64,000 bases of DNA. It comes from an uncultured Candidatus Saccharibacteria bacterium. Lineage in GTDB: Bacteria > Patescibacteriota > Minisyncoccia > Sungbacterales > HO2-52-23. The stretch is from assembly GCA_964585475.1 (NCBI GenBank), contig CAZPDF010000002.1, positions 1,631 to 65,630 of the forward strand, read 5' to 3'. Position 1 is the stretch's first letter; each line of letters starts with the position of its first letter. The translations under genes were made by a program, and so were the position numbers. Below the pieces are notes generated by a model, which saw only the letters and a list, made by a program, of their open reading frames with translations, was not told the origin of the DNA and ran no database searches. Below are positions 18,582-62,244 of the stretch, in pieces.

Positions 18582-18634
18582 CTTTATCCTAGTTTAAGGA
18601 AGCCATCGTCGAGCTCGGCTCGACCATCGCGCTT

Positions 18635-18760
18635 CTCCGGTAGCAGAACTTTGACTGGCTCACGAGGCCAGTTTTTGACGAGCCAAAGTTCGCTACCGGA
18701 CTGCGCCCAGTAGTAGAATTTTGACCGAGCTTAGCTCGGTTTTTCTTTACCCTGTTACCA
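18635..18760. repeat. Hairpin/terminator-like repeat, CCGGTAGCAGAACTTTG family, left copy
   Basis: ccggtagcagaactttgactggctcacgaggccagtttttgacgagccaaagttcgctaccgg is a long IR; related copy at 19215-19290. Confidence 0.5.
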
Positions 18761-18874
18761 AAAGCCGCGGTCGTAAGGCCGTGGTAGTGGGGTTTACCGA
18801 AACTCACCATAGGGATTCGCTTCTTGATCCTTTACTGTTATACTTACCCTAGGTTCTTTAGGGGGCGGGGAGTA

Positions 18875-19201
18875 ATGTCCAAGGCAACCGTAGTGAAAAT
18901 CGGCCATTTCCCGCTCAATTTAGGTGCGGAAAACTCGGAGGCGTTATTTAACGCAATAATTAAGGAGGTTATGGGCCCCCGAGCAAGGGAGTTTGGTCTA
19001 GAGGACTTTGAATACAACGGGGCCGACCATATTGGAGAGATCCAATTTTCCAACGGAGAGGTCTGTCGTGTGCGGCTGATCTTTACCCCGACGCTTAATA
19101 ACGGCGTGACCTTGTGGATCTTTGGAGAGACGAATGTGCTTGGTGATCTTCTGTCCGAGGGATCCGTATTTCTTATAACAACGGCATTCCAACGTCATTA
19201 G
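18875..19201 (+). CDS. hypothetical protein, flanked by related hairpin repeats
   Basis: MSKATVVKIGHFP... start with GGGGGCGGGGAG RBS. Confidence 0.4.
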   Translation: MSKATVVKIGHFPLNLGAENSEALFNAIIKEVMGPRAREFGLEDFEYNGADHIGEIQFSNGEVCRVRLIFTPTLNNGVTLWIFGETNVLGDLLSEGSVFLITTAFQRH

Positions 19202-19214
19202 AAGGAGGCGGCAG

Positions 19215-19290
19215 CACTTCTCCGGTAGCAGAACTTTGGCTGGCCCTTGGCCGGCTTTTTCTTTGCCGAAATTCACTACCGGGCTAGCTT
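19215..19290. repeat. Hairpin/terminator-like repeat, CCGGTAGCAGAACTTTG family, right copy
   Basis: ctccggtagcagaactttggctggcccttggccggctttttctttgccgaaattcactaccgg. Confidence 0.5.
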
Positions 19291-19292: not shown

Positions 19293-19512
19293 TATTTATT
19301 TGTCTAAATTTTGGATCTCGCTGAAAGCGGGAGAGCAAAATTTAGTAACAAATAAATAACCCCGCATCAATTTTGCCTATGTCTTGCCACGCGGCGTGCG
19401 CGGGCCGAATAGGCCCCTTCCTTAATGGGCGAAGCGCGCCGCCATCAATTCCAGAAATGGGCCGATATTATCCAGGCAAACTTATAACAGTTGCAAAATT
19501 GGTGCTGGGGTT
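19293..19512. repeat. Composite MITE-like element: IR module plus CCCCGCAC-TIR element
   Basis: ttatttatttgtctaaatttt...aaaatttagtaacaaataaataa IR, then 5' arm aaccccgcatcaattttgcc (19358-19376) and 3' arm gcaaaattggtgctggggtt (19493-19512); same organisation as 43108-43306. Confidence 0.55.
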
Positions 19513-23266: not shown

Positions 23267-24277
23267 ATGACAGATCCATTAGGTAGGGGCCTCGAATCCT
23301 TAATACCCAACAAAGAGCCGGACGAAGTTCCGGGGGTTTTGAATACGGAGCCGCAGGATCCGCCCTCTCCTTTAGCAGAAAAACCCCGGCCGTCTCTTGT
23401 CAATCTTGGCTCTCCGGCCGCGCGCACTTACGAGGATCATTTTACTCCTCGCAGGAGCGATTCTGTTTTTTGGATAGAAATTGAAAAAATCGAGCCGAAT
23501 CCTTACCAGCCGCGCCGCGAATTTAATGAGGAGGCATTAAAAGGGCTTGCGCATTCCATCCGCGAACACGGAGTGCTCCAGCCGATACTTGTTACCAAGC
23601 GCGAGATAGAAACTCCGACCGGCCTGGATGTCCGGTATCAATTGATTGCCGGAGAAAGACGGTGGCGCGCGGCAGGCCTGGCCGGCCTCTCCCAAATTCC
23701 TGCGGTAATCAGGCGCGGCATTCCGGATGACCGGATACGGCTTGAGCTCGCCTTAATTGAGAATGTACAGCGCGAGGATTTAAACCCGATGGAAAAAGCC
23801 CGGGCATTCAAGCAATTGATTGACGAGTTTCATCTGGTACAGCGCGAGATTGCCGAGCGCATCGGAAAATCGCGTGAGATGATTGCCAATACCCTCCGTC
23901 TTTTATCACTTTCGCCGGACATCCAGCAAGCGCTCCACGAGGGGCGCATAACCGAAGGACACGCGCGGGCGGTTTTGATGGCCGGTGACGATCCGCAAAA
24001 ACAGACGCTAGTTTTTAATGCCGTGGTAATGGATCGCCTGAATGTTCGAGAGGCGGAAAACCGCGCGCGGCAAGTTTCCGGAAAAATTTTTGTTCCGCGA
24101 AAACGTCCTGCGCAAGTCCATGATCCGGAGACGCGTTCTTGGCAGACAAAACTCGAGGAGCTATTAGGAACTAAAGTCCGAGTGGAGAAATTGGGCGAGC
24201 GCGGAAAAATTGTCGTTGAATTTTATTCGGATGAGGAATTAAGAGGTATACTTGACAAATTAATAAGGGAGGTATAG
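23267..24277 (+). CDS. parB: chromosome partitioning protein ParB/Spo0J
   Basis: IEKIEPNPYQPRREF...QLIAGERRWRAAGLAG...HTH; C-terminal GERGKIVVEFYSDEELRGILDKLIREV. Confidence 0.9.
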   Translation: MTDPLGRGLESLIPNKEPDEVPGVLNTEPQDPPSPLAEKPRPSLVNLGSPAARTYEDHFTPRRSDSVFWIEIEKIEPNPYQPRREFNEEALKGLAHSIREHGVLQPILVTKREIETPTGLDVRYQLIAGERRWRAAGLAGLSQIPAVIRRGIPDDRIRLELALIENVQREDLNPMEKARAFKQLIDEFHLVQREIAERIGKSREMIANTLRLLSLSPDIQQALHEGRITEGHARAVLMAGDDPQKQTLVFNAVVMDRLNVREAENRARQVSGKIFVPRKRPAQVHDPETRSWQTKLEELLGTKVRVEKLGERGKIVVEFYSDEELRGILDKLIREV

Positions 24278-24307
24278 TGTAGATGAAGATCGTTTGAGGA
24301 GGACGAG

Positions 24308-24637
24308 GTGCACCAGACTATAGATCGGGCCGATGCAATTAGTCGTATCGCTGAAGAATTGCGCTTTGCGTCATTTGTCACTTGGCAGGCCACCATGGAT
24401 GGGCGGCAGCGATACGGAGTCATTACAGATAGATCCCCGGTGGATATCAAAGTACACTCAGGGGATGGTCCGATCCGGATCACATTTTCTGAGGCACTTT
24501 CTTGGGGGTTGAGGTCCATAACTCCAGACAACCTTGTGCAGACCGCAGATCTCCTTAGTCTCCGCGCCCATTACTGTGATAAGGACCATGTACCGCTCTT
24601 TGACTGCATCAGAAGGGTATTTCTAAGAACTGAATAA
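24308..24637 (+). CDS. hypothetical protein
   Basis: GTG start with GAGGAGGA RBS; followed by a GGCCCCCCGCGGGCC terminator. Confidence 0.4.
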   Translation: MHQTIDRADAISRIAEELRFASFVTWQATMDGRQRYGVITDRSPVDIKVHSGDGPIRITFSEALSWGLRSITPDNLVQTADLLSLRAHYCDKDHVPLFDCIRRVFLRTE

Positions 24638-24667
24638 ATGTCGTTGACCAAAATATAAAGTTGATAA

Positions 24668-24692
24668 TCGGCCCCCCGCGGGCCATTTTTTG
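24668..24692 (+). terminator. rho-independent terminator (GGCCCCC.GCGGGCC family)
   Basis: cggccccccgcgggcc plus T-run; near-identical hairpins at 25027, 26295 and 28660. Confidence 0.7.
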
Positions 24693-24757
24693 TTCTTGAC
24701 AAGTTGATCCGAGAGACCTAAAGTTGACTCAGTTCATCATTCGGGGGAAGTTAATAA

Positions 24758-25024
24758 ATGGAACGCGAGATTATTAAATTTCGGATACCGGAAGCAAATG
24801 CGGATAGATTTTTCTTTGGCGCCGTTATGGAGAAGAACTTAGATTGTGTAGAAATTTGTCTGGGTAGCCCGGAAAATATTTTTCCCATGAATCCCCATTT
24901 CTTTGCCAGCCAGGGTGTAGAGCAAATGAGTGTGCATGACGTAGTTAAGGAGTTGAATAGATTGGAAGAGGCGAACACGGCTTTACGCGATAAACTCAAT
25001 AGAACTCAGGAATTGAGTCATTAG
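24758..25024 (+). CDS. hypothetical protein
   Basis: 88-aa ORF with GGGGGAAG RBS; terminator downstream. Confidence 0.4.
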   Translation: MEREIIKFRIPEANADRFFFGAVMEKNLDCVEICLGSPENIFPMNPHFFASQGVEQMSVHDVVKELNRLEEANTALRDKLNRTQELSH

Positions 25025-25026
25025 AA

Positions 25027-25053
25027 ACGGCCCCCTCGGGCCGTATTTATTTT
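25027..25053 (+). terminator. rho-independent terminator
   Basis: cggccccctcgggccg plus tatttatttttt. Confidence 0.7.
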
Positions 25054-25082
25054 TTGACATTTAGTTGCAGTAGGTATAAACT
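25054..25082 (+). promoter_or_regulatory. sigma70-like promoter (TTGACA ... TATAAA) driving a near-leaderless antitoxin transcript
   Basis: TTGACA at 25054-25059, TATAAA at 25075-25080, ATG at 25091 without an SD. Confidence 0.5.
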
Positions 25083-25090
25083 GCAAGTGT

Positions 25091-25324
25091 ATGAATGTCG
25101 TCACTATTCCCAAAAAACTTGCGCAAAGAGACGATTTGGTTGTCATACCTCGGGGAGAGTATGAGGACCTTTTGGAGTTAAAGAAAATAATCCCCATGGT
25201 TAAAGCTACCAAGGCCGAACTGCGGGCTATCCGGCGGGGCGAACGTGAAATTGCGAGAGGGGAATATGTAACTTGGCGCGAATTAAAATATGATTTGGCG
25301 TGTACTCGTAACCGGAAGCGCTAA
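25091..25324 (+). CDS. AbrB/MazE-fold (SpoVT_AbrB-like) type II antitoxin candidate
   Basis: MNVVTIPKKLAQRDDLVVIPRGEYEDLL has a duplicated V.IP(K/R) swapped-hairpin-like motif; paralog at 50704-50979; followed by a RelE/ParE-like toxin remnant. Confidence 0.5.
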   Translation: MNVVTIPKKLAQRDDLVVIPRGEYEDLLELKKIIPMVKATKAELRAIRRGEREIARGEYVTWRELKYDLACTRNRKR

Positions 25325-25546
25325 AAACAACTAAAGCGTATACCGAAAGGGGGTGCAGAACGAATTGAGGCGGTAATTGACGAGATGGAGGATAATCCTT
25401 TGCGCGGCGATATCGTAAAGCTTGGCGGCGAAGGCGATAGGTGGCGGAGACGCATTGGCGGTTACCGAATTCTCTATCGGCTTTCTTACAACGAGAGGGC
25501 AATTTTTATTTATGATATCAGCAGACGAACTAGCAGCACTTATTAA
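25290..25546 (+). pseudogene. RelE/ParE-family toxin gene disrupted by a -1 frameshift at an A5 run (about 25330)
   Basis: Frame B reads MIWRVLVTGSAKNN*. Frame A continues as KQLKRIPKGGAERIEAVIDEMEDNPLRGDIVKLGGEGDRWRRRIGGYRILYRLSYNERAIFIYDISRRTS. Joined, they give a typical ParE/RelE layout; restoring one C in aacaac[c]taaag rejoins the frames. Confidence 0.5.
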
Positions 25547-25552
25547 AAAGTT

Positions 25553-25745
25553 CCCCCGGAGAAACTCGGCACCAAAGTTATGGTGCAAAAAATAGGGGAG
25601 AGAGGGAAAATTGTGGTGGAATTTTACCCCCACACCTATTAAACGCAATTGAAATTGGTGCGAAGCACAGCGTTTAATAGGTGTGGGGGTTTATTCGGAC
25701 GAGGAGTTAAGAGGGATTCTTGATAAACTTATTCGAGAGGTATAG
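25553..25745 (+). pseudogene. Diverged duplicate of the parB 3' end, interrupted by a 63-bp palindromic element
   Basis: PEKLGTKVMVQKIGERGKIVVEFY-[insert]-SDEELRGILDKLIREV* versus genuine ParB LGTKVRVEKLGERGKIVVEFYSDEELRGILDKLIREV* at 24160-24277. Confidence 0.6.
25627..25689. repeat. Palindromic element, CCCCCACACCTATT family, inside the parB-tail remnant
   Basis: cccccacacctattaaacgc-aattgaaattggtgcgaagcaca-gcgtttaataggtgtggggg has 20-bp perfect TIRs; second family member at 58200-58322. Confidence 0.7.
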
Positions 25746-25752
25746 GGGGATA

Positions 25753-25894
25753 CTTGACCCCGCCTTTGAAAAGGACTGCCTGAGGGCAGATACCTATTTT
25801 GGCAGTTAGAGCCTGATCAATCACGTCAGGGTCTTTTTATTAAACCCACTTAACTTTTTAGAATCTGTCCTTTTCAAGGGCGGGGTTGACAAGT
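25753..25894. repeat. About 25-bp imperfect inverted repeat pair flanking a 90-bp hairpin-rich spacer; the right arm carries the -35 of the downstream promoter
   Basis: acttgaccccgcctttgaaaaggac ... gtccttttcaagggcggggttgacaagt. Confidence 0.5.
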
Positions 25895-25914
25895 GGATAA
25901 GGGAGGGTTAAGAC
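25886..25914 (+). promoter_or_regulatory. sigma70-like promoter
   Basis: TTGACA, then the 17-nt spacer agtggataagggagggt, then TAAGAC; AGGAG RBS and ATG at 25944. Confidence 0.45.
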
Positions 25915-25943
25915 TGATTCGGTTCTTGATATAGGAGTGGTGC

Positions 25944-26288
25944 ATGACAACCATTGCATCTTCCAGCATTTTGCGCGATCTCGCAGATGGGAGTTCTATT
26001 CCTGCTGGCCCCCTCGTGTTATTTACCTCTCCGGAAGATGGAAAAAAGCGAATCGGCTGGATTCAGGAGGTCGATTATGATCGAAAATATATTCTTGTCG
26101 CGCAGGAGCAAGAATATACCCGTATCACATTTGCAGATTTTCGAAGGCTTCAAGTGCAACTAGTCGATATTGACCATAAGTCACCGGCAGCCTACATCGT
26201 TATGCGGTATAAAGAAGCGATGGAGGAGTTGCGAAGAACGCGACAGGAACTTTTCGAATTACTTCACTTTAATGGAATTACTATTTAG
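25944..26288 (+). CDS. hypothetical protein
   Basis: 114-aa ORF with promoter, RBS and terminator. Confidence 0.4.
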   Translation: MTTIASSSILRDLADGSSIPAGPLVLFTSPEDGKKRIGWIQEVDYDRKYILVAQEQEYTRITFADFRRLQVQLVDIDHKSPAAYIVMRYKEAMEELRRTRQELFELLHFNGITI

Positions 26289-26294
26289 TCGCCA

Positions 26295-26320
26295 TCGGCC
26301 CCCCCGCGGGCCTTTTTTTA
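26295..26320 (+). terminator. rho-independent terminator
   Basis: cggcccccccgcgggcc plus ttttttt. Confidence 0.7.
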
Positions 26321-26507
26321 TTTCACCCCTTTGGTTTGGTAAACTGCTGATTATGCGAATCCGCGTGTCGTTTGAGGGCCTTGCGAGGCGGAGCGGCCAT
26401 GGTTTTCCGCCGGAGGCGGAAAGAGCGACGCCGAGCACGGGAGGTGAGGACGCCTCGGCGGGGCGTCCGACAGCCGTACCGAAAACGACATGTGGATGAG
26501 CGATCTT

Positions 26508-28244
26508 CTAAAGCAGTTTATACCCCACCTCCTCCACTCCTTTCACCTCTTTCAGTTTCACCCTGGTTTTCTCAAGCTGGACGCGATTTTTAAAAGGGGC
26601 CTGGATTGATAAAACCGCCCAGGCCTGATTTTTGGTATCGGTAACCACTTTTTTTATATTTATTTTTTGCCGAGCGAGAACGTTGGTAACGTCCCTCAAA
26701 AGCCCCACACGATCTTTGATGGTGAGATTCAGTTCAACGGTTTCTCCGCCTCGTTTTTCAAACGTGTTCTCCTCCCGAAGTTTTTTCAAAACCGAAGACA
26801 CTTTTTTCCGCGCTTGCGCGCTTTTGACAAACCCAAGCCAGTCGCGGCTTGGCTTTTTATTTTTCTGCGTCAAAATTTCAACGACGTCCCCGTTTTTCAA
26901 TTGATGATCCAGCGCCGTCATTTTGCCATTTACTTTGGCTCCGGTGGCGCTGTTTCCTATGTCCGTATGAATATGGTAGGCAAAGTCCACTGGCGTTGCT
27001 CCTTCCGGCAGATCAAAGACATCGCCTTTTGGGGTAAGTACGAAAATACGGTTTTTGAAGAAATCAATTTTCAATGATTCAAGAAATTCGTCCGGCTTAT
27101 CAAATTCTTTCTGCCATTCGCGCAATTGCTCGATCCAAGCGTACTGTTTCCGGTTCACTAGGGCCTGCTTTTCTTCGGCGTATGAGGCGGTTTGAGTTCT
27201 TTTGAATTCGGAGTACGCCCAGTGCGCGGCAATGCCATATTCTGCTTCCTCGTGTATCTCATCCGTCCGCATCTGTATTTCCACCGGCCTTTCTTCCGGC
27301 CCAAAAACCGTCGTGTGGAGAGAGCGGTAGCCATTGGGTTTGGGCAGGGCAATATAGTCCTTGATTTTTCCCGGCATCGGGCGCCAGAGCTTGTGTACTA
27401 CACCCAGGGTCGCGTAGCAGTCCTCTACTGTCGGCACGATTACCCTAAGCGCCACGAGATCGGTGATTTTGGAAATATCCATATCGTATTTAAGGAGTTT
27501 TTTATACAAGCTGTAGTAGCGTTTGGCCCGCGCGTGAATATCGAGGAATTTTATTTTTTCTCGAGCCAGCTCCTCCGCGATAAAGGGCTTTATTTTTTTG
27601 ACGTATTGATCCCAATCCTCGTATTTCTCTTGGGCCGTGCGCATGATCCATTCGTGCTCCTTGGGATATACATAAGGGAACGCTAAATCCTCGAGTTTCC
27701 CGGATAGTTCTTGTATGCCCAGGCGGTACGCAAGAGGTGCGTAAATTTCAAGGGTTTCTAAAGCGATCCGCCGCTGTTTTTCCGGCGGCAGGTGACCCAA
27801 AGTTTCCATATTGTGGGTACGGTCTACGAGTTTAAGAAGCACAATCCGAATATCTTCGGCGATCGCAAGGAACATTTTTCTCAAGCTCTCGGCGGTTCTT
27901 TCCGTGCCTCTGTAGCGGATTTTGTCGAGTTTCGTCACGCCTTCAACCAAAAATGCGATTTCATCCCCAAAATTTTTCTTTATATCCGCAATCGTATATT
28001 CGGTATCTTCGCAAACATCATGAAGGAGGGCGGCGGCAATTGTCGGCGCATCAAGCCGCATCTCGGCAAGCCGCAGCGCCGTGGCCATGGGGTGCACGAT
28101 ATAGGGCTCGCCGGATTTTCGTTTTTGGCCTTCGTGGGCGTGGGACGCAAAATCATACGCTTTTTTGATAAGCGCTGAATCTTGGTCCGGCCGCGCCTGA
28201 ATTTTCATTTTTTCCAAAAGCGAATTGACGGTCATGATAGCCAT
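26508..28244 (-). CDS. bifunctional (p)ppGpp synthetase/hydrolase, RelA/SpoT (Rel) family
   Basis: HD domain HDVCEDT; synthetase motifs (DLVALRVIV, RSLHTTV); TGS (IFVLTPKGDVFDLPEGATPVDFAYHIHTDIG); C-terminal ACT-like; start at MAIMTVNSLLEK. Confidence 0.9.
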   Translation of the reverse strand: MAIMTVNSLLEKMKIQARPDQDSALIKKAYDFASHAHEGQKRKSGEPYIVHPMATALRLAEMRLDAPTIAAALLHDVCEDTEYTIADIKKNFGDEIAFLVEGVTKLDKIRYRGTERTAESLRKMFLAIAEDIRIVLLKLVDRTHNMETLGHLPPEKQRRIALETLEIYAPLAYRLGIQELSGKLEDLAFPYVYPKEHEWIMRTAQEKYEDWDQYVKKIKPFIAEELAREKIKFLDIHARAKRYYSLYKKLLKYDMDISKITDLVALRVIVPTVEDCYATLGVVHKLWRPMPGKIKDYIALPKPNGYRSLHTTVFGPEERPVEIQMRTDEIHEEAEYGIAAHWAYSEFKRTQTASYAEEKQALVNRKQYAWIEQLREWQKEFDKPDEFLESLKIDFFKNRIFVLTPKGDVFDLPEGATPVDFAYHIHTDIGNSATGAKVNGKMTALDHQLKNGDVVEILTQKNKKPSRDWLGFVKSAQARKKVSSVLKKLREENTFEKRGGETVELNLTIKDRVGLLRDVTNVLARQKINIKKVVTDTKNQAWAVLSIQAPFKNRVQLEKTRVKLKEVKGVEEVGYKLL

Positions 28245-28283
28245 AGTGTATTCTAAAGAAGGTCCTTTTTCAAGGAGAAAATT

Positions 28284-28658
28284 ATGGTACTCAAGGGGGT
28301 ACTGCAGAAGCGTCCAACCGAAATCGCGGCAGAATGCATAGCTGTCATTCTTTCTGAGATCCCCATGAATTATGAATTTCATCAAGTTGTGCGCGAGCGC
28401 GCCAAAGACTTGATCAAGAGACGTTCTCAAAAATTAGGCGAAGGTCCACGGCTCTCAAATAGTGATCACGAAACTGCCGCACGCCTTGTGGCCGGAATGT
28501 CCATGTACTATATGTACGCATCAGAATGCGAAGCCGTGCTGGATGAAGTGTTTCTCAAGGCGCAACGGATCAAGGCGGAACTTGACTCAATTACCTCCAC
28601 GAGAGACCACCTTGAATGGCTTGAAGTAGCGGCAGATGTACGAGGAACTAAGAAATAA
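28284..28658 (+). CDS. hypothetical protein, divergent from rel
   Basis: AGGAG RBS 7 nt upstream of ATG; terminator downstream. Confidence 0.4.
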   Translation: MVLKGVLQKRPTEIAAECIAVILSEIPMNYEFHQVVRERAKDLIKRRSQKLGEGPRLSNSDHETAARLVAGMSMYYMYASECEAVLDEVFLKAQRIKAELDSITSTRDHLEWLEVAADVRGTKK

Positions 28659-28748: not shown

Positions 28749-28897
28749 GCCCCGCACCTTTGTCGCGAGATAATAATTTTGCAACACGCTTCGCGCGTCG
28801 AGGGATTGGCTATTCGCCACCGCGTGTTGCGGAAGTTATTTGAGTAGAGGGTTTATCGGACTAGCTCTTCCATCTCGTGGCGACAAAGGTGCGGGGC
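28749..28897. repeat. MITE-like palindromic element, CCCCGCAC-TIR family
   Basis: 5' arm gccccgcacctttgtcgcgaga and 3' arm tcgtggcgacaaaggtgcggggc; the internal block gagggattggctattcgccaccgcg resembles the interior of the copy at 240-393. Confidence 0.6.
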
Positions 28898-37554: not shown

Positions 37555-37978
37555 GACCACATTTTTTATTTTTTTCAACCCCTTGACAAGTTTTAGGCCA
37601 GCGCTACTCTGGTATCAGACAAATCGTTTATCCTATCGAGAGTCCCAGAAAGGAAAGGGCAACCTTGCGGAACTTCCGACTTGCAACTTCCGACTTCCAA
37701 CGACTTCTTTGTTGGTAGTTGGTGGTTAATTGTTGGTTGTTGCGTAAGCGCCGACTCTATCCCTAAGGATCCCTAAGCTCCGACATGCGTCGGAGCCGGG
37801 ATGGCGGCCGCTATAAGCGGCTTAGCCATAGAGTTTCGGTTGCCTATTGACCTTTTTCGGGATTTTTTGTTAGGGTGAGCGAGACGACCTTTGACAAGGA
37901 GAAGAAATCAATGAGACGTTTTTGGATGGTTTTGGGCACGATCGCGATGCTTTTCGGTTCATTTTCTTATGTCCAGGC
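37555..37978. repeat. 424-bp direct repeat, copy 1 (promoter region, structured 5' leader, and the first 23 codons, i.e. the signal peptide, of the downstream gene)
   Basis: Identical over about 424 bp to 39623-40046, from gaccacattttt... through ...tcttatgtccaggc; contains TTGACAag and internal hairpins such as gctccgacatgcgtcggagc. Confidence 0.9.
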
Positions 37979-39587
37979 CGAGACGGATATTCAGAAGCTG
38001 TCGAAGGTACTCCCGGCAGACGTTTTCAAAGAAGTTTCTAAAATTCCCCCCAAGCCGCACTTTTTGCTTGGCCTTGAGCCTAAGACCGATGAATGGGAGC
38101 AATACCTTGAATGGAGAAAGATCTTCCAGACGAAGGATCTTTTCTACGGGTATAATGGCTCCGGTGTCATGGATAAATCCCGCGCAGATTATGTCGCCCC
38201 GGGCAACACCGAGCTTTCAGAGACGGTGAACGTTTCCGGAAAAAATATTCTGATTCTTTACACTCATCACCACTTTACGAAGGACGGAATGCACTCGTTC
38301 TGGTCGGTCACGGGAGAGAAGAACTTGGCGGAGTTTTCTCCTGTCTATCGGAAATACGAAATCCAATGGGGACTCGGACATTTGAGCGACGAGCAGTGGA
38401 AAAATATCCAGCGGGTGCTCGGCTGGGCGCAATTTGAAGCAATGAAGGAGCTTGTTCATGATGTGATTGGTTGGGCTCTTAAGAAAAACCTCAAAGATTA
38501 TAGCGAGATGAATCTTACCGAAGGAGTGCTTGAGGCCCGCGCCGTCCTTCTTGACGATCCGGATTATAAGAAACGGCTTGATGATCCAGTTCCGGGGACA
38601 GCCGGGCTAAAAGTGCGAGACATTATTCCTGTGCCGCTGACGAGGGCCGAGGATTTTCTGCCCGATCTTCTTATTGTAGGACCCAGGGGTTTCTACGGCG
38701 GATTTGCTAACTGGAAAACACCCGATATGGAGCGAATTGTTTTCTTTGACCTCCTTGGACTTGCGCTCTGGCATGTGTCCGGCTGGCCGATGCCTGCGCA
38801 CGAATTCGTGCACACGAACCCCTATCTTCAGGGAATTCCGCTTAGCTTTTATTATGATATCGAGATGTGGGCGGATTTGACGACTGGGCTTGAATCCGGG
38901 ATGCGCGAGTTCCTGTTCCATCCTTATATGGCAGTGGTTCGAGATTCGGTGCGCACCCAATTCGGCTATGATTACGAGGAAGCCAAGCGCCGCATCATGC
39001 CGGGGCAATTCGGGGTAAAAGATATTCGCGAGAAGGAATTCCGAGAGCATGCGAGGCGCGTGAAAGTGATTCGGGATGAACTTGTGCGTTTTGTGAAAGA
39101 TCCGAAAAAAGGACTTCTCGTGCGGTTCTACAGCGACCCGTATTACTGGGTGGCGATCAATACTAAATACTGCGATACCGCAGCTGCCTGGAGAATTCTC
39201 TTTGCCCTGTCATACGAGCCTGCCGGTCTTTATGATCCTGATAAGAAGGATAAAGACGGCAAGATAGTTTCAGCGGTACAGCAGACCAAGGAATGGCTTA
39301 CTAGAGAGGAAGATGGGGGCAACATCAGGCGCCTTGCAGAAAAGGCGATGGCAAATACGGGCAAAGAGTCTAAATTCGCGAAGGAGCTTTCCAAAGTCGA
39401 GTCCAATGAATTAATGAAGTGCCCGGTTGATTCTCGCTGGTTCCTTATGAACGAAGCGGAAAAACGTATGTTCCATGATTTTATAAAGCCGCTTCTTCTG
39501 CAGGGGAAAGACGGAGACCCTGACGCAAGGGTTCTCCTCATGAGAATTTTTGGTCCCGCCATTCTTCAGCGCCTGCAGATTCGCTAG
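37911..39587 (+). CDS. secreted putative zinc metallopeptidase-like protein (HEFVH...E), paralog 1
   Basis: ATG with AAGGAGAAG RBS; signal peptide MRRFWMVLGTIAMLFGSFSYVQA; HEFVHTNPYLQG...E motif conserved with the paralog; shared C-terminal FYSDP block. Confidence 0.5.
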   Translation: MRRFWMVLGTIAMLFGSFSYVQAETDIQKLSKVLPADVFKEVSKIPPKPHFLLGLEPKTDEWEQYLEWRKIFQTKDLFYGYNGSGVMDKSRADYVAPGNTELSETVNVSGKNILILYTHHHFTKDGMHSFWSVTGEKNLAEFSPVYRKYEIQWGLGHLSDEQWKNIQRVLGWAQFEAMKELVHDVIGWALKKNLKDYSEMNLTEGVLEARAVLLDDPDYKKRLDDPVPGTAGLKVRDIIPVPLTRAEDFLPDLLIVGPRGFYGGFANWKTPDMERIVFFDLLGLALWHVSGWPMPAHEFVHTNPYLQGIPLSFYYDIEMWADLTTGLESGMREFLFHPYMAVVRDSVRTQFGYDYEEAKRRIMPGQFGVKDIREKEFREHARRVKVIRDELVRFVKDPKKGLLVRFYSDPYYWVAINTKYCDTAAAWRILFALSYEPAGLYDPDKKDKDGKIVSAVQQTKEWLTREEDGGNIRRLAEKAMANTGKESKFAKELSKVESNELMKCPVDSRWFLMNEAEKRMFHDFIKPLLLQGKDGDPDARVLLMRIFGPAILQRLQIR

Positions 39588-39622: not shown

Positions 39623-40046
39623 GACCACATTTTTCTTTTTTCGCAACCCCTTGACAAGTTTTAGGCCAGCGCTACTCTGGTATCAGACAAATCGTTTATC
39701 CTATCGAGAGTCCCAGAAAGGAAAGGGCAACCTTGCGGAACTTCCGACTTGCAACTTCCGACTTCCAACGACTTCTTTGTTGGTAGTTGGTGGTTAATTG
39801 TTGGTTGTTGCGTAAGCGCCGACTCTATCCCTAAGGATCCCTAAGCTCCGACATGCGTCGGAGCCGGGATGGCGGCCGCTATAAGCGGCTTAGCCATAGA
39901 GTTTCGGTTGCCTATTGACCTTTTTCGGGATTTTTTGTTAGGGTGAGCGAGACGACCTTTGACAAGGAGAAGAAATCAATGAGACGTTTTTGGATGGTTT
40001 TGGGCACGATCGCGATGCTTTTCGGTTCATTTTCTTATGTCCAGGC
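39623..40046. repeat. 424-bp direct repeat, copy 2
   Basis: See copy 1; ATG offset is identical (2068 bp) in both copies. Confidence 0.9.
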
Positions 40047-41436
40047 TGATACGGTCTGGCCCAAAGAATGTCAGGGCAAGGAGCCGCACTACCTTACTGG
40101 ATTTACGCAGACCAAAGATCAAATCGATGCTTTCTTCCAGATGCAGCAAAACTATCGGATGAGTCAGGCAGATTCTGCTAACCGTGCGGTGCGTGCTACA
40201 AACCTTGGAGAGTACGTAAAGCTTACCTTCTACGGCCACACGCTTACGCTATATCTGCCGATGTACCGGCAAGTGGGAAATACTGTTTACTTCCATACCG
40301 CATCCGGGGTGACACCCCTTACCGTACAGGAATTTGAGTGCGTGAAAGCGGATCTGAAGCAATGGATTCAGAGCGCGGTTGATGCAGACTACGATGATCA
40401 TAAGATGATTACTACGATCGCGGTCGAGAGTTTTGGCAAGCGAAACAATATGACTCCGGAAGCTGTGTATAAGCTTCTCGCAAAGCAGGTTCCAGAGTAC
40501 GGCACGAACTATGCTGACGTTTTGAAGATCCCCCTGCTTGAGCCAGTAGATTTCATCAGAAGTGTGAAATACATGTATTTCACAGCGATGGGCTCCTGCA
40601 ACGCCACCGTCTATGTCAAGACCGTGGTAGCGCTTACTCCGTGTGTGCGACGCATGGATCATATCATCGGCTATCCTACCGTGATGAAGCATGAGCTGAT
40701 TCATGCGAACATCAAACTCCAAGGATATCCCATTGCCTGGCACATGAATTACGAGCTTTTTGCCGCCCTGCTTCCTTTTCTTGAGCAGCCGACAAACCTT
40801 GACGACTTTTTCTATCACACGTATCTTTCGACGCCTTGGGAGATTCTCAAAGTGTTTGGCCGCTGGGATATCCAGAAGGTGCGTCAAGAGATTTTCCGCT
40901 ACGTCGTGGCTTGGCGCGGCAGCGCGATGAACCGAGAGGTTCTGGCAGGCTACCTTGCCGAGATTAACGAAGCCGCTAAGTGGCTTCGGGAGACTGGCCT
41001 GCAGGCGCTCGCCGAATTTTATTCCGATCCCCACGCTTGGGCTGCGGTAAACGACATGTTCTATGACGACGATATGGCCTATAAAGCGATAATGGCCAAA
41101 AACTGGGAGCCCACGCTTCTTAAGGGCCATGCTAATACCGTGAAATTCATCCTTAAGCATGCGGATCAATCAAAGTCGATTGCCGAAAGGGCCATGGAGC
41201 GGGTAGGAAAGGATAGTAAGGGCTTTGAAGACGACCGTCGCGTCAAGGCCCTCGGGGAGTATTTGAAACTCGCCGAGGCGCTCGGTTTCTCGAAAGACGA
41301 GCTAGTCCGCATGGGGCGCGCGCATGGATACCGCATTGAGCATTTCGAGCGGATGGATCTTGACATGATGCGCCAACTCATGAATGATTTCCTTAAGGGA
41401 GAAGGAATGTTTGAGAAAAGACTGGAGGTGCGCTAA
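39979..41436 (+). CDS. secreted putative zinc metallopeptidase-like protein (HELIH...E), paralog 2
   Basis: Signal peptide identical to paralog 1, then divergent; HELIHANIKLQGYP...E; FYSDPHAWAAVN block. Confidence 0.5.
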   Translation: MRRFWMVLGTIAMLFGSFSYVQADTVWPKECQGKEPHYLTGFTQTKDQIDAFFQMQQNYRMSQADSANRAVRATNLGEYVKLTFYGHTLTLYLPMYRQVGNTVYFHTASGVTPLTVQEFECVKADLKQWIQSAVDADYDDHKMITTIAVESFGKRNNMTPEAVYKLLAKQVPEYGTNYADVLKIPLLEPVDFIRSVKYMYFTAMGSCNATVYVKTVVALTPCVRRMDHIIGYPTVMKHELIHANIKLQGYPIAWHMNYELFAALLPFLEQPTNLDDFFYHTYLSTPWEILKVFGRWDIQKVRQEIFRYVVAWRGSAMNREVLAGYLAEINEAAKWLRETGLQALAEFYSDPHAWAAVNDMFYDDDMAYKAIMAKNWEPTLLKGHANTVKFILKHADQSKSIAERAMERVGKDSKGFEDDRRVKALGEYLKLAEALGFSKDELVRMGRAHGYRIEHFERMDLDMMRQLMNDFLKGEGMFEKRLEVR

Positions 41437-43107: not shown

Positions 43108-43306
43108 TGTCTAAGTTTTGAAGTCGGAGCGAACAAAACTTAGCAACAAATAATTAACCCCGCACTTATTTTACCACCCAGAACGATATGAAGCTTCCGA
43201 TGGCATGAATCACGACTTACTGTTGCGTGGTGCGTGCGCGAATAGCGCATCCCTCATTGGGCGAAGCACCACGCCGTCCGCTGCCCCGTAAAATAAGTGC
43301 GGGGTC
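43108..43306. repeat. Composite MITE-like element: IR module (ttaattatttgtctaagtttt...aaaacttagcaacaaataattaa) plus CCCCGCAC-TIR element (TIRs 43156-43174 and 43288-43306)
   Basis: 5' arm aaccccgcacttattttac and 3' arm gtaaaataagtgcggggt are reverse complements; same module order, inverted, at 240-473. The 3' TIR abuts the mfd stop. Confidence 0.6.
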
Positions 43307-48829: not shown

Positions 48830-49246
48830 ATGGACTGCCTTTTCTGCAAAATCGCCGCAGGCGAAATTGGCTCCGAGGTTATATATGAGGACACGGAGGT
48901 AAAGGTTTTCAAAGACCTTCACCCCAAAGCCCCGGTGCATCTGCTCGTTATTCCTAAAACTCACATTCAGTCCATTGCGCATCTGGACCCCGCACCTTTT
49001 GTGGACTGCGCTTCGCGCGGGGACTCACACTTAGTCCACAAAAGGTGCGGGGTGGAAGCCGACCAACAGTGTTATATAATCGCCAAACTGATTTATGCCG
49101 CCAAGAACGCTGCCGCGGATCAGGGATTGAAAGGATATAAATTAGTGTTTAATGTGGGGCGGGAAGGAGGGCAGGTGATAGATCATCTGCATCTGCATTT
49201 GCTTGGTGGATGGGGAAGCGAGGGTGAGAGGAGTATAAATGTTTAG
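48830..49246 (+). CDS. HIT-family (histidine triad) nucleotide hydrolase, with in-frame palindromic insertion
   Basis: HLLVIPKTHI...; HLHLHLLGG triad; insertion at 48988-49052. Confidence 0.8.
   Translation: MDCLFCKIAAGEIGSEVIYEDTEVKVFKDLHPKAPVHLLVIPKTHIQSIAHLDPAPFVDCASRGDSHLVHKRCGVEADQQCYIIAKLIYAAKNAAADQGLKGYKLVFNVGREGGQVIDHLHLHLLGGWGSEGERSINV
48988..49052. repeat. In-frame palindromic element (CCCCGCACC TIR, MITE-family-like) inside the HIT gene
   Basis: ccccgcaccttttgtggac-tgcgcttcgcgcggggactcacacttag-tccacaaaaggtgcgggg has 19-bp perfect TIRs. It encodes DPAPFVDCASRGDSHLVHKRCGV between the conserved HIT segments. Confidence 0.75.
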
Positions 49247-58092: not shown

Positions 58093-58199
58093 GAATTTTT
58101 TTGACTGGGCATGGCACCGCGATATAATTAAGCTAACAACCTTAGCTACCAAGAAATTTTTCGAAAATTCTCTTTCGTCCGGGCGGTCAGCCCCCACAC

Positions 58200-58322
58200 C
58201 TATTTTGAACTGCGGTATACGTATTTAGCGGATGTTCTTGAGAACTGCGGCCACAAGCCCGGTGTCGATAGAATCCCAGTGCGTAGTCTGCAGTTTCTGA
58301 TTGTTCAAAATAGGTGTGGGGG
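58200..58322. repeat. Palindromic element, CCCCCACACCTATT family, immediately upstream of nrdJ
   Basis: cccccacacctattttgaac ... gttcaaaataggtgtggggg; 20-bp perfect TIRs flanking 83 bp; sibling at 25627-25689. Confidence 0.7.
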
Positions 58323-58365
58323 CACGCCGAGGAGGGCGGAGGAGAATTTTTGTCAAGAAACGTAC

Positions 58366-61300
58366 ATGACACGGATCCTTCAAGACCAAAGAACAGAAGA
58401 GCATAAAGCAGCTCGACACCCGCTTCCTTTGAAGCGGCTTTTTACTAAAGAAGGATCGCACCCCTTCGACGGGGTTGGGTGGAAGAAAGTGAAAGTTACC
58501 GTGCGCGGCATCAACGGTCACGTTGAGGAACGGGAACTTGAATTTCCGGATTTTTGGTCGGAGAACGCCGCAATCATTGCGGGCTCCAAATATTTTCGCG
58601 GCCGCATCGGGTCTCCGGAGCGAGAAATATCAGCACGCGAGATGATCCGCCGGGTTTCCGAAACTATCAGCGGCTGGGGTTTTAATCTCGGATACTTTGA
58701 TACCCAGGATGATGCGCAAATTTTTGGAGAGGAACTCGCGCATATACTTCTCCACCAAAAAGCCGCTTTTAATTCTCCGGTCTGGTTTAACGTTGGAATA
58801 GAGTCTCCTCCGCAGTGTTCCGCCTGTCAGCCGTACCGAGCGCTGGTAAGTACGCCCTCCGGATTTTTCCCGATTGGAGAAATCGTAGAAAAAAATCTTT
58901 TGGGACTGCCGGTATACGATTCACAAGGCATTACGCGGGTTATTGCCGTAAAAAATAACGGAGTAAAAAATGTTTATAAAATCTGTCTTCGTAACGGAAC
59001 TTTTATAGAAGCCACCGGAGACCATTTGATCAAAGCAGCGCGCGAAAGAAGAACACGATCGCAGTGGATTCGCGTTGACGAACTGAGTGAAGGAATGCGG
59101 CTACATTTGTATCCGCATAGAGAAATTCTACAGAAGCAAATTTTGGCGCCTGCTATGCAGGATTTGGTTAGTAGTGCGGCCGCGAATTCGAATGTTATTA
59201 CCGCAGCACCTCCGCTAGTTTCGCTTAAAAATTCACAAGTGGAGATTGGTGAAGCGGCGCTTGCCGGATGGCTGCAGGCGGATGGGTTTGTGGGGCAGTA
59301 TCAAACAGGAACCAATCGTTCCTTGACCATAGAGTTTATGGCAGTGACTCCCGAGGAAAAGCAGTGGATAGAGATGCATCTTAATACCGTATTTCCTTAC
59401 GTTCATCGGAAAGTACGTATCACCAAGACCAAAGCGGGAACTCCCATAACGAGGATTCGCCTGTACGGTGAATCGCTGCGTTCTTTTGTAGAAAAGTATG
59501 AGCTTTTGAAGAGACGTCAGGCTATCCGTGTGCCCCAGGCGCTTTGGAAGAGTCCGCCGCAGGTTAGCAGTGCATATTTGAAGAGCGTCTTTCAGGGTGA
59601 AGGATTTGTACATATGCGAGAACGGTCGGTTCACGTCGCCTTTGACACCATCAGCCAGGAATGGATGCATGATGTACAAATACTTTTATATGGACTTGGT
59701 ATTTATTCGCGCATTCGGCATAAAAAAGAACCTCGTTCTAACCGCAGCGATCTCTATGAACTTGATATCAGTTATGGAGGTGAACGAAAAAAATTCGCTG
59801 ACCGCATCGGATTTATAAGCCAAGAAAAACAGGATAAGTTAAATGCCTCACTGGAAATTGATCGTCAGAAGAACGTCCCCGATCTTCGAGAGGAAGAGAT
59901 TGTCCATATCGAGCAGTTGGGCGAAGAGGTGGTATACGATATTCAAACCGAGAGCGGTGAATATTTAAGCAATAACGTTGCTGTTCATAATTGTTTTATA
60001 CTTTCGGTCGAGGACAACATGGAATCGATCCTGCAATGGATTTACACCGAGGGCATGATTTTCAAGCGCGGATCCGGCGCGGGGATAAATCTTTCCACTC
60101 TTCGCTCAAGCCACGAGACGTTGTCCAAAGGCGGCCATTCTTCCGGTCCGGTATCTTTCATGAGAGGAGCGGATGCGGTTGCCGGCATGATTGCCTCCGG
60201 CGGATCAACCAGGCGTGCGGCAAAAATGGTTGTGCTGAATGCCGACCACCCGGACGTTATGAGATTCATACGTTCGAAGTCCGAGGAAGAAAAAAAAGTT
60301 CGGGCGCTGATTGCGGCAGGATATAATATGTATGATTTGAATAATGACGCTTGGAACTCGATTCAATATCAAAACGCGAATAATTCGGTAAGAGTCACGG
60401 ATGAATTTATGAATGCCGTTGAGGGCGATGAGAAATGGACCACGCGATATGTTACCACCGGCAAGGTGACCGAGGAAGTCCGGGCGCGCGATCTTATGCG
60501 CGCGATTGCCCAAGCCGCCTGGGATTCCGGAGATCCGGGGATGCAGTATGACACCACTATCAATCGCTGGCATACGGCTTCAAACACGGGCCGCATAAAC
60601 GCCTCTAACCCGTGCGCCGAATACATGCACCTTGATGATTCCGCCTGCAACCTTGCCTCGATCAACCTTCTGCGGTATTTGAATCGGGACGGGACTTTTA
60701 ACGTGCGCGATTTCATCCATACGGTGGATATCATGACTTTGGCGCAGGAAATCATAGTTGATTCTTCAAGCTATCCCACGGAAAAAATCGCTAAAAACGC
60801 GCATGAATTCCGGCAGCTGGGCTTAGGTTATGCCAATTTGGGCGCACTTCTTATGACTTGGGGCTTGCCCTATGACTCGGAAGAAGCGCGCCACACAGCA
60901 GCTTCCATAACCGCGCTTATTTGCGGGGAGGCGTATCGCTATTCTGCCGAGATTGCCAAACGCATGGGTCCTTTTCCCGGATACAAATTTAATAAAGCGC
61001 CGATGTCAAATGTCCTGGTCATGCATCGCGACTCGTTCGGAAGGGTGAGGGAGACGCGGGTTACGGATCGCGAGATATATCGTGCCGCAAAAAAAGTATG
61101 GGAGGAGGCCGTGGCTATGGGCAAGAAATACGGAGTTCGCAATTCGCAGGTTACGGTTATAGCCCCCACCGGAACCATCGCCCTTATGATGGATTGCGCA
61201 ACCACCGGGGTGGAACCTGAATTTGCGCTGGTGAAAATCAAAAATCTCGTCGGGGGTGGAACGATGAAATTCGTAAATACCGCCGTGCCGGATGCTCTTT

Positions 61301-62244
61301 TGCACCTCGGGTATCTTGAGGAGGAAGTTGGTGCGATTGTCTTTTACATTGAAAAAAACGGAACGATTGAGGGCGCGCCGGGATTAAAAGAGGAGCATTT
61401 GGCGGTTTTTGATTGCGCGGTAAAACCTGCAGGTGGAAAGCGATCAATCGCCTGGCAGGGACATGTAAAAATGGTGGGAGCAGTGCAGCCCTTTATCTCG
61501 GGAGCAATTTCAAAAACCTTCAATATGCCGCACGAGACCACGGTTGAAGAAATTATGCAGGCCTACACTATGGGTTGGAAATTGGGACTTAAGGCCTTTG
61601 CCGTCTATCGCGACGGATCAAAAGCGGCCCAGCCCTTGGTAACTGCCTCCGGGCAGGGCGGCGGGTCTTTCGAGCGAAAACCCGCGCGCAGGAAACTTCC
61701 TCCAACCCGGCCCTCCGAGACCCACAAATTCTCGATTGCCGGGCATGAAGGATATTTGACTTACAGCACTTTTGAGAATGGCGATTTGGCCGAAATTTTT
61801 ATCCGTATGTCAAAACAGGGCTCGACTTTGGCAGGGCTCTTGGATGCATTCGCGATTGCGATTTCGATCGCGCTTCAGCACGGGGTTCCTTTGAAAATTT
61901 TGGTGCGAAAATTTGCCTACGGCAGGTTTGAGCCGGCAGGATACACCGAAAATGCGGCAATCCAAATTGCAACCTCCATTACCGACTACATCTTCCGCTA
62001 TCTTGCGCTTAGGTTTTTGTTGCCGCAGGATTTGGATGAATTGGGAATTAAAGCGCCTCCCAAGGAAGTGGAGGCGATGACCAAAACGCTCAACGGGCTA
62101 CTGGAGGCGCGCGAGAAATCTTTGCCGGATCCGGATCGGCTCGTTTATGCCGATAGCGTATGCCGCGAGTGCGGAGGAATGATGATTCAGACCGGCGCCT
62201 GCAAAACCTGTTTTAGATGCGGAGCGACGTCTGGGGGTTGTTAA
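58366..62244 (+). CDS. nrdJ: class II (adenosylcobalamin-dependent) ribonucleotide reductase NrdJ, interrupted by an intein
   Basis: Extein motifs: ...SPVWFNVGIESPPQCSA|CFILSV... (active-site Cys loop), GSGAGINLSTLRSSHE, NPCAEYMHLDDSACNLASINL, C-terminal CRECGG...CKTCFRCG zinc ribbon; start ATG 58366 is tentative. Confidence 0.9.
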   Translation: MTRILQDQRTEEHKAARHPLPLKRLFTKEGSHPFDGVGWKKVKVTVRGINGHVEERELEFPDFWSENAAIIAGSKYFRGRIGSPEREISAREMIRRVSETISGWGFNLGYFDTQDDAQIFGEELAHILLHQKAAFNSPVWFNVGIESPPQCSACQPYRALVSTPSGFFPIGEIVEKNLLGLPVYDSQGITRVIAVKNNGVKNVYKICLRNGTFIEATGDHLIKAARERRTRSQWIRVDELSEGMRLHLYPHREILQKQILAPAMQDLVSSAAANSNVITAAPPLVSLKNSQVEIGEAALAGWLQADGFVGQYQTGTNRSLTIEFMAVTPEEKQWIEMHLNTVFPYVHRKVRITKTKAGTPITRIRLYGESLRSFVEKYELLKRRQAIRVPQALWKSPPQVSSAYLKSVFQGEGFVHMRERSVHVAFDTISQEWMHDVQILLYGLGIYSRIRHKKEPRSNRSDLYELDISYGGERKKFADRIGFISQEKQDKLNASLEIDRQKNVPDLREEEIVHIEQLGEEVVYDIQTESGEYLSNNVAVHNCFILSVEDNMESILQWIYTEGMIFKRGSGAGINLSTLRSSHETLSKGGHSSGPVSFMRGADAVAGMIASGGSTRRAAKMVVLNADHPDVMRFIRSKSEEEKKVRALIAAGYNMYDLNNDAWNSIQYQNANNSVRVTDEFMNAVEGDEKWTTRYVTTGKVTEEVRARDLMRAIAQAAWDSGDPGMQYDTTINRWHTASNTGRINASNPCAEYMHLDDSACNLASINLLRYLNRDGTFNVRDFIHTVDIMTLAQEIIVDSSSYPTEKIAKNAHEFRQLGLGYANLGALLMTWGLPYDSEEARHTAASITALICGEAYRYSAEIAKRMGPFPGYKFNKAPMSNVLVMHRDSFGRVRETRVTDREIYRAAKKVWEEAVAMGKKYGVRNSQVTVIAPTGTIALMMDCATTGVEPEFALVKIKNLVGGGTMKFVNTAVPDALLHLGYLEEEVGAIVFYIEKNGTIEGAPGLKEEHLAVFDCAVKPAGGKRSIAWQGHVKMVGAVQPFISGAISKTFNMPHETTVEEIMQAYTMGWKLGLKAFAVYRDGSKAAQPLVTASGQGGGSFERKPARRKLPPTRPSETHKFSIAGHEGYLTYSTFENGDLAEIFIRMSKQGSTLAGLLDAFAIAISIALQHGVPLKILVRKFAYGRFEPAGYTENAAIQIATSITDYIFRYLALRFLLPQDLDELGIKAPPKEVEAMTKTLNGLLEAREKSLPDPDRLVYADSVCRECGGMMIQTGACKTCFRCGATSGGC
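58825..59991 (+). mobile_element. 389-aa intein with a LAGLIDADG homing-endonuclease domain inserted at the NrdJ active-site loop
   Basis: Begins CQPYRALVSTPSGFFPIGEIV (block A), TGDHLI (block B, T..H), LAGWLQADGFVG and YLKSVFQGEGFV (two LAGLIDADG motifs), ends VYDIQTESGEYLSNNVAVHN followed by +1 Cys. Removal restores QCSA-CFILSV. Confidence 0.85.

Follow-up and report, generated by a model that had tools for sequence, protein, structure and literature searches.

How does the 3' end of a housekeeping partition gene come to lie again behind the intact gene, with unrelated small genes in between? The question is raised by parB in a stretch of 64,000 nucleotides (nt) from an uncultured groundwater bacterium, which in its full length is called the window here, and which we compared with the corresponding loci of Candidatus Sungbacteria (Parcubacteria; Candidate Phyla Radiation, CPR), the group to which its ParB matches assign it; these loci are labelled L001 and so on. 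An original prediction for this locus held that an element had integrated into the 3' end of parB and had supplied a replacement C-terminus. Our results indicate that the entry of foreign DNA with a replacement tail into the 3' end of parB is a real and recurrent footprint. The explanation that we favour, and hold to be somewhat probable, is that recombination with DNA from other Sungbacteria strikes repeatedly at the junction between parB and relA, a hotspot that expands through sequential C-terminal displacement.

Three copies of the parB tail in the window

The parB gene of the window is intact (Table 1), and its product shares 60 to 83% identity with the Sungbacteria orthologues. The gene order is parA with a tRNA-Leu gene, then parB on the plus strand, then relA/spoT and topA on the opposite strand. 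The duplicated stretch comprises the last ~40 codons of parB, all of them inside the ParB_C dimerisation domain defined by Pfam; the final 38 codons (24161-24277) have their counterpart at 25562-25745. When the functional tail, T1, was aligned to the downstream DNA with MAFFT, it was found again at 25558-25629 together with 25677-25745. The same second copy, T2, was recovered by nhmmer, with E values of 1e-14 and 6e-9. T1 and T2 share 74% identity over 117 nt. The predicted duplication of the parB 3' end around a cassette is borne out.

T2 is interrupted exactly behind its EFY codons by a palindrome that had also been predicted and that proved to be perfect. TTTA stands on either side of it, so that T2 has gained 67 nt, and reading through the insertion results in a frameshift and an in-frame TAA. 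T2 has no downstream gene of its own. The second copy had thus been recognized correctly, but an account with two tails misses a third, T3, which is the shortest and most decayed. T3 starts one base past the T2 stop codon, precedes orf114, and lies in two pieces (25746-25757 and 25886-25913). What had been described as a 25-bp inverted repeat pair beyond T2 is indeed a repeat, but it is an element of 128 nt that splits T3. Excising this element in silico joins ATACTTGACAA...ATAAGGGAGG, in register with T1. Three co-oriented tails, T1, T2, and T3, are therefore stacked behind the window parB.

The region from 23267 to 26400 is identical in the assemblies L001 and L002, including the frameshift in the toxin gene described below, and the arrangement is thus not an assembly artefact. 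The tail duplication is real. A repeat match at 7628, considered as a sign of a second parB in the window, falls in glmS and is a chance match.

T1 and T2 have separate histories

One way to duplicate a tail would be an in-place tandem duplication of the parB 3' end and its downstream genes, after which the second copy decays. T2 does begin where the final gene of the cassette ends, right past its stop codon, which is what a duplication junction would look like. A silent copy, however, would gather mostly differences that change amino acids. T1 and T2 differ at 30 nt, and only 4 codons are changed; the proportion of differing sites is 0.81 for synonymous sites (pS), which are saturated, and 0.11 for nonsynonymous sites (pN). 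In a simulation of random mutation, ~19 changed codons were expected, and none of 20,000 runs gave 4 or fewer. Saturated synonymous sites together with a nearly identical protein mean that the copies diverged in separate functional genes and did not arise by duplication in place. Every T2 residue is found among 120 ParB homologues, and because all of its residues occur in working ParB proteins, T2 must have belonged to a functional parB until recently. We estimate the neutral change in T2 since its loss of function at less than ~5%.

The nearest tails point in the same direction. The 5' half of T2 is 85 to 86% identical to the tails of L004, L032, and L096, which belong to other species, versus 70% to T1; the median identity between native tails of different species is 67%. 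All of the tails encode the Sungbacteria consensus ...EELRGILDKLIREV. The substitutions and the nearest tails show that T1 and T2 evolved in separate functional parB genes and that either T1 or T2 is derived from a different lineage. The genes behind each tail are also unrelated to one another. For this window, the substitution pattern effectively refutes tandem duplication, which we regard as highly improbable, even though a T2 fragment in L163 (see below) is identical to the T1 of that genome at 20 of 22 positions. Naming the native tail of the window from its closest relatives was tried and rejected, as T1 and T2 are equidistant from them.

Empty and filled parB-relA junctions in other Sungbacteria

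The arrangement of parA and parB, with relA and topA behind them in convergent orientation, is conserved. In L005, L012, L013, L032, and L006, the parB stop codon lies 0 to 40 nt from the relA stop codon, compared with 2.2 kb in the window; relatives thus show the empty site that the original prediction implied. In other species, 0.3 to 1.7 kb of unrelated small open reading frames (ORFs) lie at the junction. A search of 161 loci with nhmmer found extra tails in this strain and in L007 alone, and a third filled site, in L163, was found by reading the contig.

L163 is among the closest relatives of the window (82% ParB identity). Its parB is followed by a small ORF, an antitoxin-toxin pair homologous to that of the window, a tail fragment (KIVVEFY) directly past the toxin stop codon, and a 24-nt hairpin, after which the contig ends.

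L007 harbors three tails. Its parB is 86% identical in nucleotide sequence to that of the close relative L008 up to approximately CGCGGAAAAAT, at the codons RGKI, and diverges thereafter. Past RGKI, the working tail of L007 ends with ...IIVEFYSDEELQGLLGKLIHET and is 73 to 75% identical to tails of the L104/L005 type, which represent a different clade. The L007 T3 relic, in turn, resumes the L008 tail from the same 11-mer to 6 nt beyond the stop codon. The two copies of the 11-mer CGCGGAAAAAT enclose an insert of ~810 nt, in which a relic tail carrying the 24-nt hairpin, two ORFs (one of them small), and a further palindrome are found. Comparison of the two genomes thus shows directly that foreign DNA with a replacement C-terminus entered the L007 tail and that the native tail was displaced ~0.8 kb downstream; L007 is the case that decides for displacement as a general model. 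Over its last 56 nt, the window T1 matches the L007 T3 relic at 92% identity.

The relics vary from case to case, with lengths of 40, 12, 22, 23, and 27 codons. They start at EKLG (window T2), RGIL (window T3), IVVEFY (T2 of L007 and of L163), and RGKI (L007 T3), and most of them begin right past the stop codon of the preceding gene. Such edges suggest deletional trimming rather than a fixed arm of an attachment (att) site. The cargo is unrelated from genome to genome.

These junctions also bear on the original prediction in a form in which the enzyme acts in trans: a short cassette whose att site imitates the tail of parB would be integrated and excised by a site-specific recombinase (Xer-type or unknown) encoded elsewhere in the genome, with the GC-rich hairpin beside the crossover possibly forming part of the site. 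Such a cassette would regenerate its target and leave a displaced fragment at the far end, as observed in genomic islands (PMC4383910, PMC7192596). The L007 insert has the same 11-mer at either end, the 5' edges of T2 in both L163 and L007 fall at KIVVEFY, and an identical 24-nt hairpin occupies the same tail position in these two genomes with differing flanks. Against a cassette of this kind, the Pfam gene tables and scans of the window (covering ~1-58 kb) contain no recombinase, integrase, or transposase, and none of the four small ORFs of the cassette is recombinase-like. The duplicated length varies between 12 and 40 codons, and each genome has an entirely different cargo. The hairpins are part of a dispersed family that has flanking duplications of its own and also occurs far from parB (for example, in a HIT gene), and the 5' half of the window T2 is codon-perfect, which would not be expected in an att arm that was never translated. 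We consider this explanation unlikely.

The original prediction can be judged on the same evidence and is upheld in part. The separate histories of the tails and the comparison of L007 with L008 uphold a replacement C-terminus of foreign origin, but a discrete integrative element of the kind found in tRNA islands does not fit. An integrase or recombinase was to be sought elsewhere, and the scans of the window returned none. The att-like repeats that had been proposed are likewise not seen: a constant core is lacking, T1 and T2 agree over no more than 14 consecutive nt, and the relic starts differ. With no recombinase, no identity block, variable relics, differing cargo, and stacks that are three tails deep, we do not classify the locus as an integrative element.

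A dispersed palindromic family in and beside the relics

The palindromes that split the relics are members of a dispersed family with termini of CCCC[C/G]ACACC or CCCCGCAC. The window harbors at least 8 copies, and others are present in L007, L008, L015, L116, and L163; the shortest forms are 24 nt long. With terminal inverted repeats, no coding capacity, and multiple dispersed copies, the family resembles transposable elements of the miniature inverted-repeat kind (MITEs). The 63-nt palindrome is predicted to fold as DNA with -25.1 kcal/mol (z -10). Flanking repeats of 4 nt are present at three window copies (TTTA, TTGA, and TGGA) and absent from four others. Members at TTTAY sites occur in L007, L015, L116, and L163, and TTTAY flanks both sides of five of the six complete members of the CCCCACACC subfamily. 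The original view of the palindrome as a later mobile insertion is supported by the flanking duplications, the copy number, and this site preference. No parent transposase was identified for the window palindromes, and the 24-nt hairpin is absent from viral contigs. Readings of the hairpin as dif/Xer-like, attC-like, or IS200/IS605-like were dropped on inspection by eye; no dif or attC consensus is present, and a cut-and-paste element better fits the flanking duplications.

Members of the family also lie within or beside other genes. In the HIT gene at 48830-49246, a 65-nt palindrome (48988-49052), flanked by TGGA, adds 69 nt in frame, and the alignment to solved HIT proteins breaks at residues 50/78, leaving an insert of ~24 residues. 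In the T2 relic of L007 (7041-7139 of that locus), the 24-nt hairpin and 6 further nt are in frame and yield a 32-codon ORF, MMAEFYPHTKFGVGVCLDEELRGILDKLIREV. Upstream of parA in L008 (905-1235), two palindromic elements of the CCCCGCAC type interrupt an old tRNA-Leu(CAA) gene, and the first of these elements encloses an intact tRNA-Leu(CAA) gene with a different acceptor stem; the neighborhood thus contains a second relic with a replacement copy. In the window, a 132-nt CCCCCACACC palindrome (58191-58322) overlaps the annotated start of a ribonucleotide reductase gene (58279-62244), which contains an intein with a LAGLIDADG endonuclease domain.

The parB tail itself carries a TTTAY target at GAATTTTAT, which accounts for the relics of three genomes having been struck at the same spot. 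The simplest reading is that the palindromes hit the relics after displacement. A reversed order, in which the damage comes first, would have a palindrome inserted at TTTAY cripple the dimerisation domain, after which a foreign intact tail arriving upstream would be selected; in a variant, the break made by the element stimulates recombination. This would explain why a palindrome lies in or beside every relic and why, apart from the palindromes, the codons of the relics are perfect. Insertion into working genes does occur, as in the HIT gene, the insertion in L007 T2 is in frame, and the split tRNA-Leu gene of L008 has its intact replacement inside one of the elements. Precise loss of the element, however, would be a far easier rescue than the import of foreign DNA, and since the part of T2 that lies past a stop codon (T2b) is undecayed, the rescue would have to have been almost immediate. 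Target preference and the lack of selection on relics explain the association without a causal link. We therefore rate damage as the initial event slightly lower than the integrative cassette. Because every relic is affected, both minority alternatives, damage first and a site-specific role for the hairpins or the 11-mer, are retained.

A proposed model of sequential C-terminal displacement

The recombination pathway, the entry route, and the order of events that we infer for displacement at the parB-relA junction are as follows. DNA of another Sungbacteria lineage would enter the cell, bearing the 3' end of the parB of that lineage together with downstream small orphan genes and, in the case of the window, a ParE/RelE module. 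Of the possible routes of entry, natural transformation is the most plausible. The competence gene dprA lies 7 kb from parB, and natural competence is documented in Saccharibacteria, which also belong to the CPR (PMC10187176). The incoming DNA would recombine with the resident parB inside the highly conserved tail, and its other end would join illegitimately or via microhomology just upstream of the resident tail. This would produce an intact chimeric parB followed by the imported genes, with the resident tail left behind as an untranslated relic. Repeated events would pile up relics, giving the window order of T1 (working), T2, and T3 (oldest). Deletions would shorten each relic until it adjoins the preceding gene's stop codon, and a very active palindromic MITE-like family, of which one subfamily prefers TTTAY, would then settle in the relics.

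Several observations weigh against this model. All five relics carry or adjoin a palindrome, which exceeds the expectation for passive insertion unless the elements are very active. Recombination is inefficient between sequences that are ~75% identical, no donor genome was found for T1 with orf109, and orf109 and orf114 are orphans. The closest ParB in a collection of 5.8 billion proteins is only 83% identical, too distant for the native tail of the window to be singled out, and the window parB shows no mosaic breakpoint, which was not resolvable because relatives are only ~75% identical at the nucleotide level. The window and L163 share the junction TATTAAAAA at the toxin stop codon, a hint that the cassette has a defined end or that the two loci have a common ancestor. 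Both L007 junctions lie at one conserved 11-mer, a position compatible as well with a site-specific event or with a single crossover (Campbell).

A bolder proposal is that the 3' end of the Sungbacteria parB is a dedicated, integrase-independent platform for gene capture, with the tail motif CGCGGAAAAAT...GAATTTTAT and the GC-rich hairpins as the recombination site. We give this less credence than either damage first or the integrative cassette and consider it quite doubtful. If true, enzymes of the host would bring small, fast-evolving Tudor-like genes, along with toxin-antitoxin modules, to a place beside the partition operon and shuffle them there, a functional analogue of the integron in bacteria with tiny genomes.

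Genes between and behind the tails

The coordinates of the features at the junction are given in Table 1.

Table 1. Features of the window from parB to relA/spoT
Feature	Coordinates	Strand	Remarks
parB, 336 amino acids (aa), intact	23267..24277	+	Pfam ParB_N, HTH_ParB, ParB_C
T1, functional parB tail, ...EELLGTKVRVEKLGERGKIVVEFYSDEELRGILDKLIREV and stop	24157..24277	+	Within ParB_C dimerisation domain
orf109, orphan small gene, GTG start	24308..24637	+
Terminator behind orf109	24670-24684	+
Promoter-like TTGACA-17-TAAAGT (24696), orf88 (24758-25024), terminator (25027-25044)	24696..25044	+	Promoter/terminator scan
Promoter-like TTGACA-17-TAAACT (25054), antitoxin-position ORF, 77 aa (25091-25324)	25054..25324	+
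ParE/RelE toxin pseudogene, frameshifted in A-run 25323-25327	25290..25546	+	PF05016 ParE_toxin, E 3e-9 after repair
T2, relic tail EKLGTKVMVQKIGERGKIVVEFY / SDEELRGILDKLIREV and stop, split by palindrome	25559..25745	+	MAFFT, nhmmer
Perfect palindrome, 63 nt, 21-nt arms, MITE-like, CCCCCACACC termini	25627..25689	.	TTTA at 25623-25626 and 25690-25693
T3, shortest, most decayed relic tail, RGILDKWIREG and stop, split by 128-nt element	25746..25913	+	Repeat families
Inverted-repeat element, 128 nt, CCCCGCC termini, 20-nt arms	25758..25885	.	TTGA on both sides; fold z -5.5
orf114, orphan small gene (25944-26288), terminator (26297-26312)	25944..26312	+
relA/spoT, conserved right-hand neighbor, abuts parB in empty-site genomes	26508..28430	-

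The two small genes with terminators and the TTGACA promoter that had been described between the tails were recovered; the scan placed the terminators at 24670 and 25027, and TTGACA promoters at both 24696 and 25054. Among 5.8 billion proteins, orf109 matches only itself. The AlphaFold2 (AF2) model of orf88, of low confidence, consists of strands and a long C-terminal helix, and the protein is weakly similar to that of the ORF behind parB in L163. orf114 is an orphan among 1.84 billion representative proteins; its AF2 model, with four strands and a long helix, is of low confidence and gives weak matches to Tudor-like barrel folds. The cassette DNA has no match in plasmid or phage collections. 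In Rfam, only tRNA-Leu reaches the gathering score, and the region of 24-26.6 kb yields nothing but sub-threshold noise.

Wherever a tail keeps a gene behind it, an ORF of 80 to 120 aa lies within 30 to 50 nt. These ORFs share their size, a weak [FY]G[VI][VI]xE motif, a terminal helix, and a similar AF2 topology of low confidence. The cargo genes of different genomes show no mutual homology by blastp, and phmmer gives only E values of ~0.03-0.1. Position, size, the weak motif, and the low-confidence topology thus provide a lead, and only a lead, to a single family. Similarly, a TTGACA sequence lies inside T1 at 24252, and across genomes the tails that bear TTGACA tend to be those with a small gene downstream. 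The T1 copy is 15 nt from TATAGT at the stop codon and was not called by the promoter scan; a promoter embedded in the tail is a further lead.

The antitoxin of the pair had been called AbrB-like, a label that finds no footing: the ORF in the antitoxin position has no match in Pfam, NCBIfam, or the PDB, and no family can be assigned. The L163 ORF at the corresponding position shares 46% identity with it, and its homologues in L007 are paired with the same toxin family. The frameshifted RelE/ParE toxin, on the other hand, was correctly recognized. Its frameshift is the same in three assemblies, and it has homologues with up to 66% identity. The antitoxin ORF overlaps the toxin start, and the pair occurs in other Sungbacteria. 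By its sequence features, the pair conforms to the architecture of a type II toxin-antitoxin system of the ParE/RelE type, with a toxin frame that is not intact here. In L163 (2470-2730), the toxin seems to be start-less, with AAT where the window has ATG-ATT, and the antitoxin ORFs are intact. Both parB-linked toxin copies, in the window and in L163, therefore look inactivated. In other Sungbacteria, the ParE/RelE pair is located between glyA and folD, so its position beside parB is derived.

The glyA-folD interval of the window (18589-19250) contains, instead of the ParE/RelE pair, a membrane ORF of 56 aa and an ORF of 108-125 aa. On both sides of the latter lies a 31-nt repeat (18629 and 19214), which is part of a hairpin.

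Other repeats and structured elements

Between orf114 and the relA stop codon (26341-26500), the window contains a long imperfect hairpin, ATCCGCGTGTCGTTT...AAACGACATGTGGAT, with no Rfam match. Its ends are kept in L162, with 95% identity over 45 nt; a conserved RNA and a bidirectional terminator are both conceivable.

Elements of ~150 nt with inverted termini of the CCCCGCAC type are found at 242-391, 19361-19512, 28750-28896, and 43158-43304. They share the internal motif GCTTCGC...AGGGAT.GG.CTATTCGC, often lie beside a hairpin repeat of the TTATTTGTCTAAATTTT type, and have no Rfam match; they could be MITEs or a repeated structured RNA. A direct repeat of 300 nt (37555-37854 and 39623-39922; 99% identity, 2068 nt apart) has its copies upstream of two large ORFs without Pfam matches (37875-39587 and 39943-41436). 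A tRNA-synthetase-like gene of 1207 aa (~1839-5462) has Abhydrolase and NUDIX matches mid-gene. A 41-nt repeat, AGTCATTCTGAGCG.AGCGAAGAATC..., is present at 1086, 4877, and 63801, with one of the copies inside this gene.

Relation to known systems

The parB locus shares features with several known systems. As in genomic islands at gene 3' ends (Islander/TIGER; PMC4383910, PMC7192596), parB is regenerated, a displaced fragment marks the far end, relatives show an empty site, and tandem accretion is possible. Unlike these islands, the locus has neither an integrase nor a constant identity block that could serve as an att core, its insert measures only 0.8 to 1.4 kb, the size of the fragment varies, and the cargo is unrelated between cases. 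As in integron arrays, units are added beside a fixed point and older ones shift away, the cargo consists of small orphans and toxin-antitoxin genes, and palindromes lie between units. In contrast to integrons, the locus shows no signature of intI, attI, or attC, its cassettes carry TTGACA-N17 promoters and terminators of their own, and the palindromes are dispersed repeats inside relic tails with flanking duplications rather than sites at cassette ends.

The palindromic family itself is comparable to MITEs and to the palindromic elements of Rickettsia (PMC10969869) in that its members are short, non-coding, and present in many copies, with terminal inverted repeats and, at some copies, flanking duplications; like a Rickettsia element, one window copy lies in frame inside a gene, that for the HIT protein. 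The window family differs from the Rickettsia elements in its termini (CCCC[C/G]ACACC or CCCCGCAC), its TTTAY-preferring subfamily, its 24-nt forms, and its CPR host. It represents an active CPR palindromic family able to sit in frame within proteins.

The rhs, contact-dependent inhibition (CDI), and type VI secretion system (T6SS) loci provide the closest parallel in the literature. At these loci, modules anchored by homology displace the resident 3' end without an integrase and leave strings of orphaned 3' ends (Kirchberger 2017, PMC5361080); displacement arrays at such loci have also been described earlier (Jackson 2009, as cited in PMC5361080), and homology-facilitated illegitimate recombination is the suggested route for rhs and T6SS (PMC5361080). 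The parB locus has the same layout of a conserved 5' gene followed by co-oriented orphan 3' ends, with stacks of three tails both in the window and in L007. The newcomer brings one or more downstream genes and older ones are pushed back, again with no integrase, and the substitution pattern, the nearest tails, and the comparison of L007 with L008 show that the tail pieces come from different lineages. It differs in that parB is a housekeeping partition gene and not a polymorphic toxin. Its tails encode the same consensus peptide, so that there is no tail diversification and there are no distinct C-terminal activities with cognate genes; the tail just serves as the place at which recombination occurs. 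Its cargo consists of orphan small genes and a decaying toxin-antitoxin pair instead of immunity genes, and its relics are very short (12 to 40 codons), each with a MITE-like insertion.

The analysis reveals no new molecular machine, and the mechanism is one that we infer. At the level of sequence, it does provide a clean record of foreign gene uptake by ultra-small CPR genomes in which no mobile-element machinery is visible: the DNA is joined to the end of an essential and conserved gene, and datable relics stay behind. It also points to a hotspot that gathers lineage-specific orphan genes. The process, sequential C-terminal displacement, is known from polymorphic toxin loci and is here extended to a housekeeping gene, in an unusual gene and an unusual phylum.

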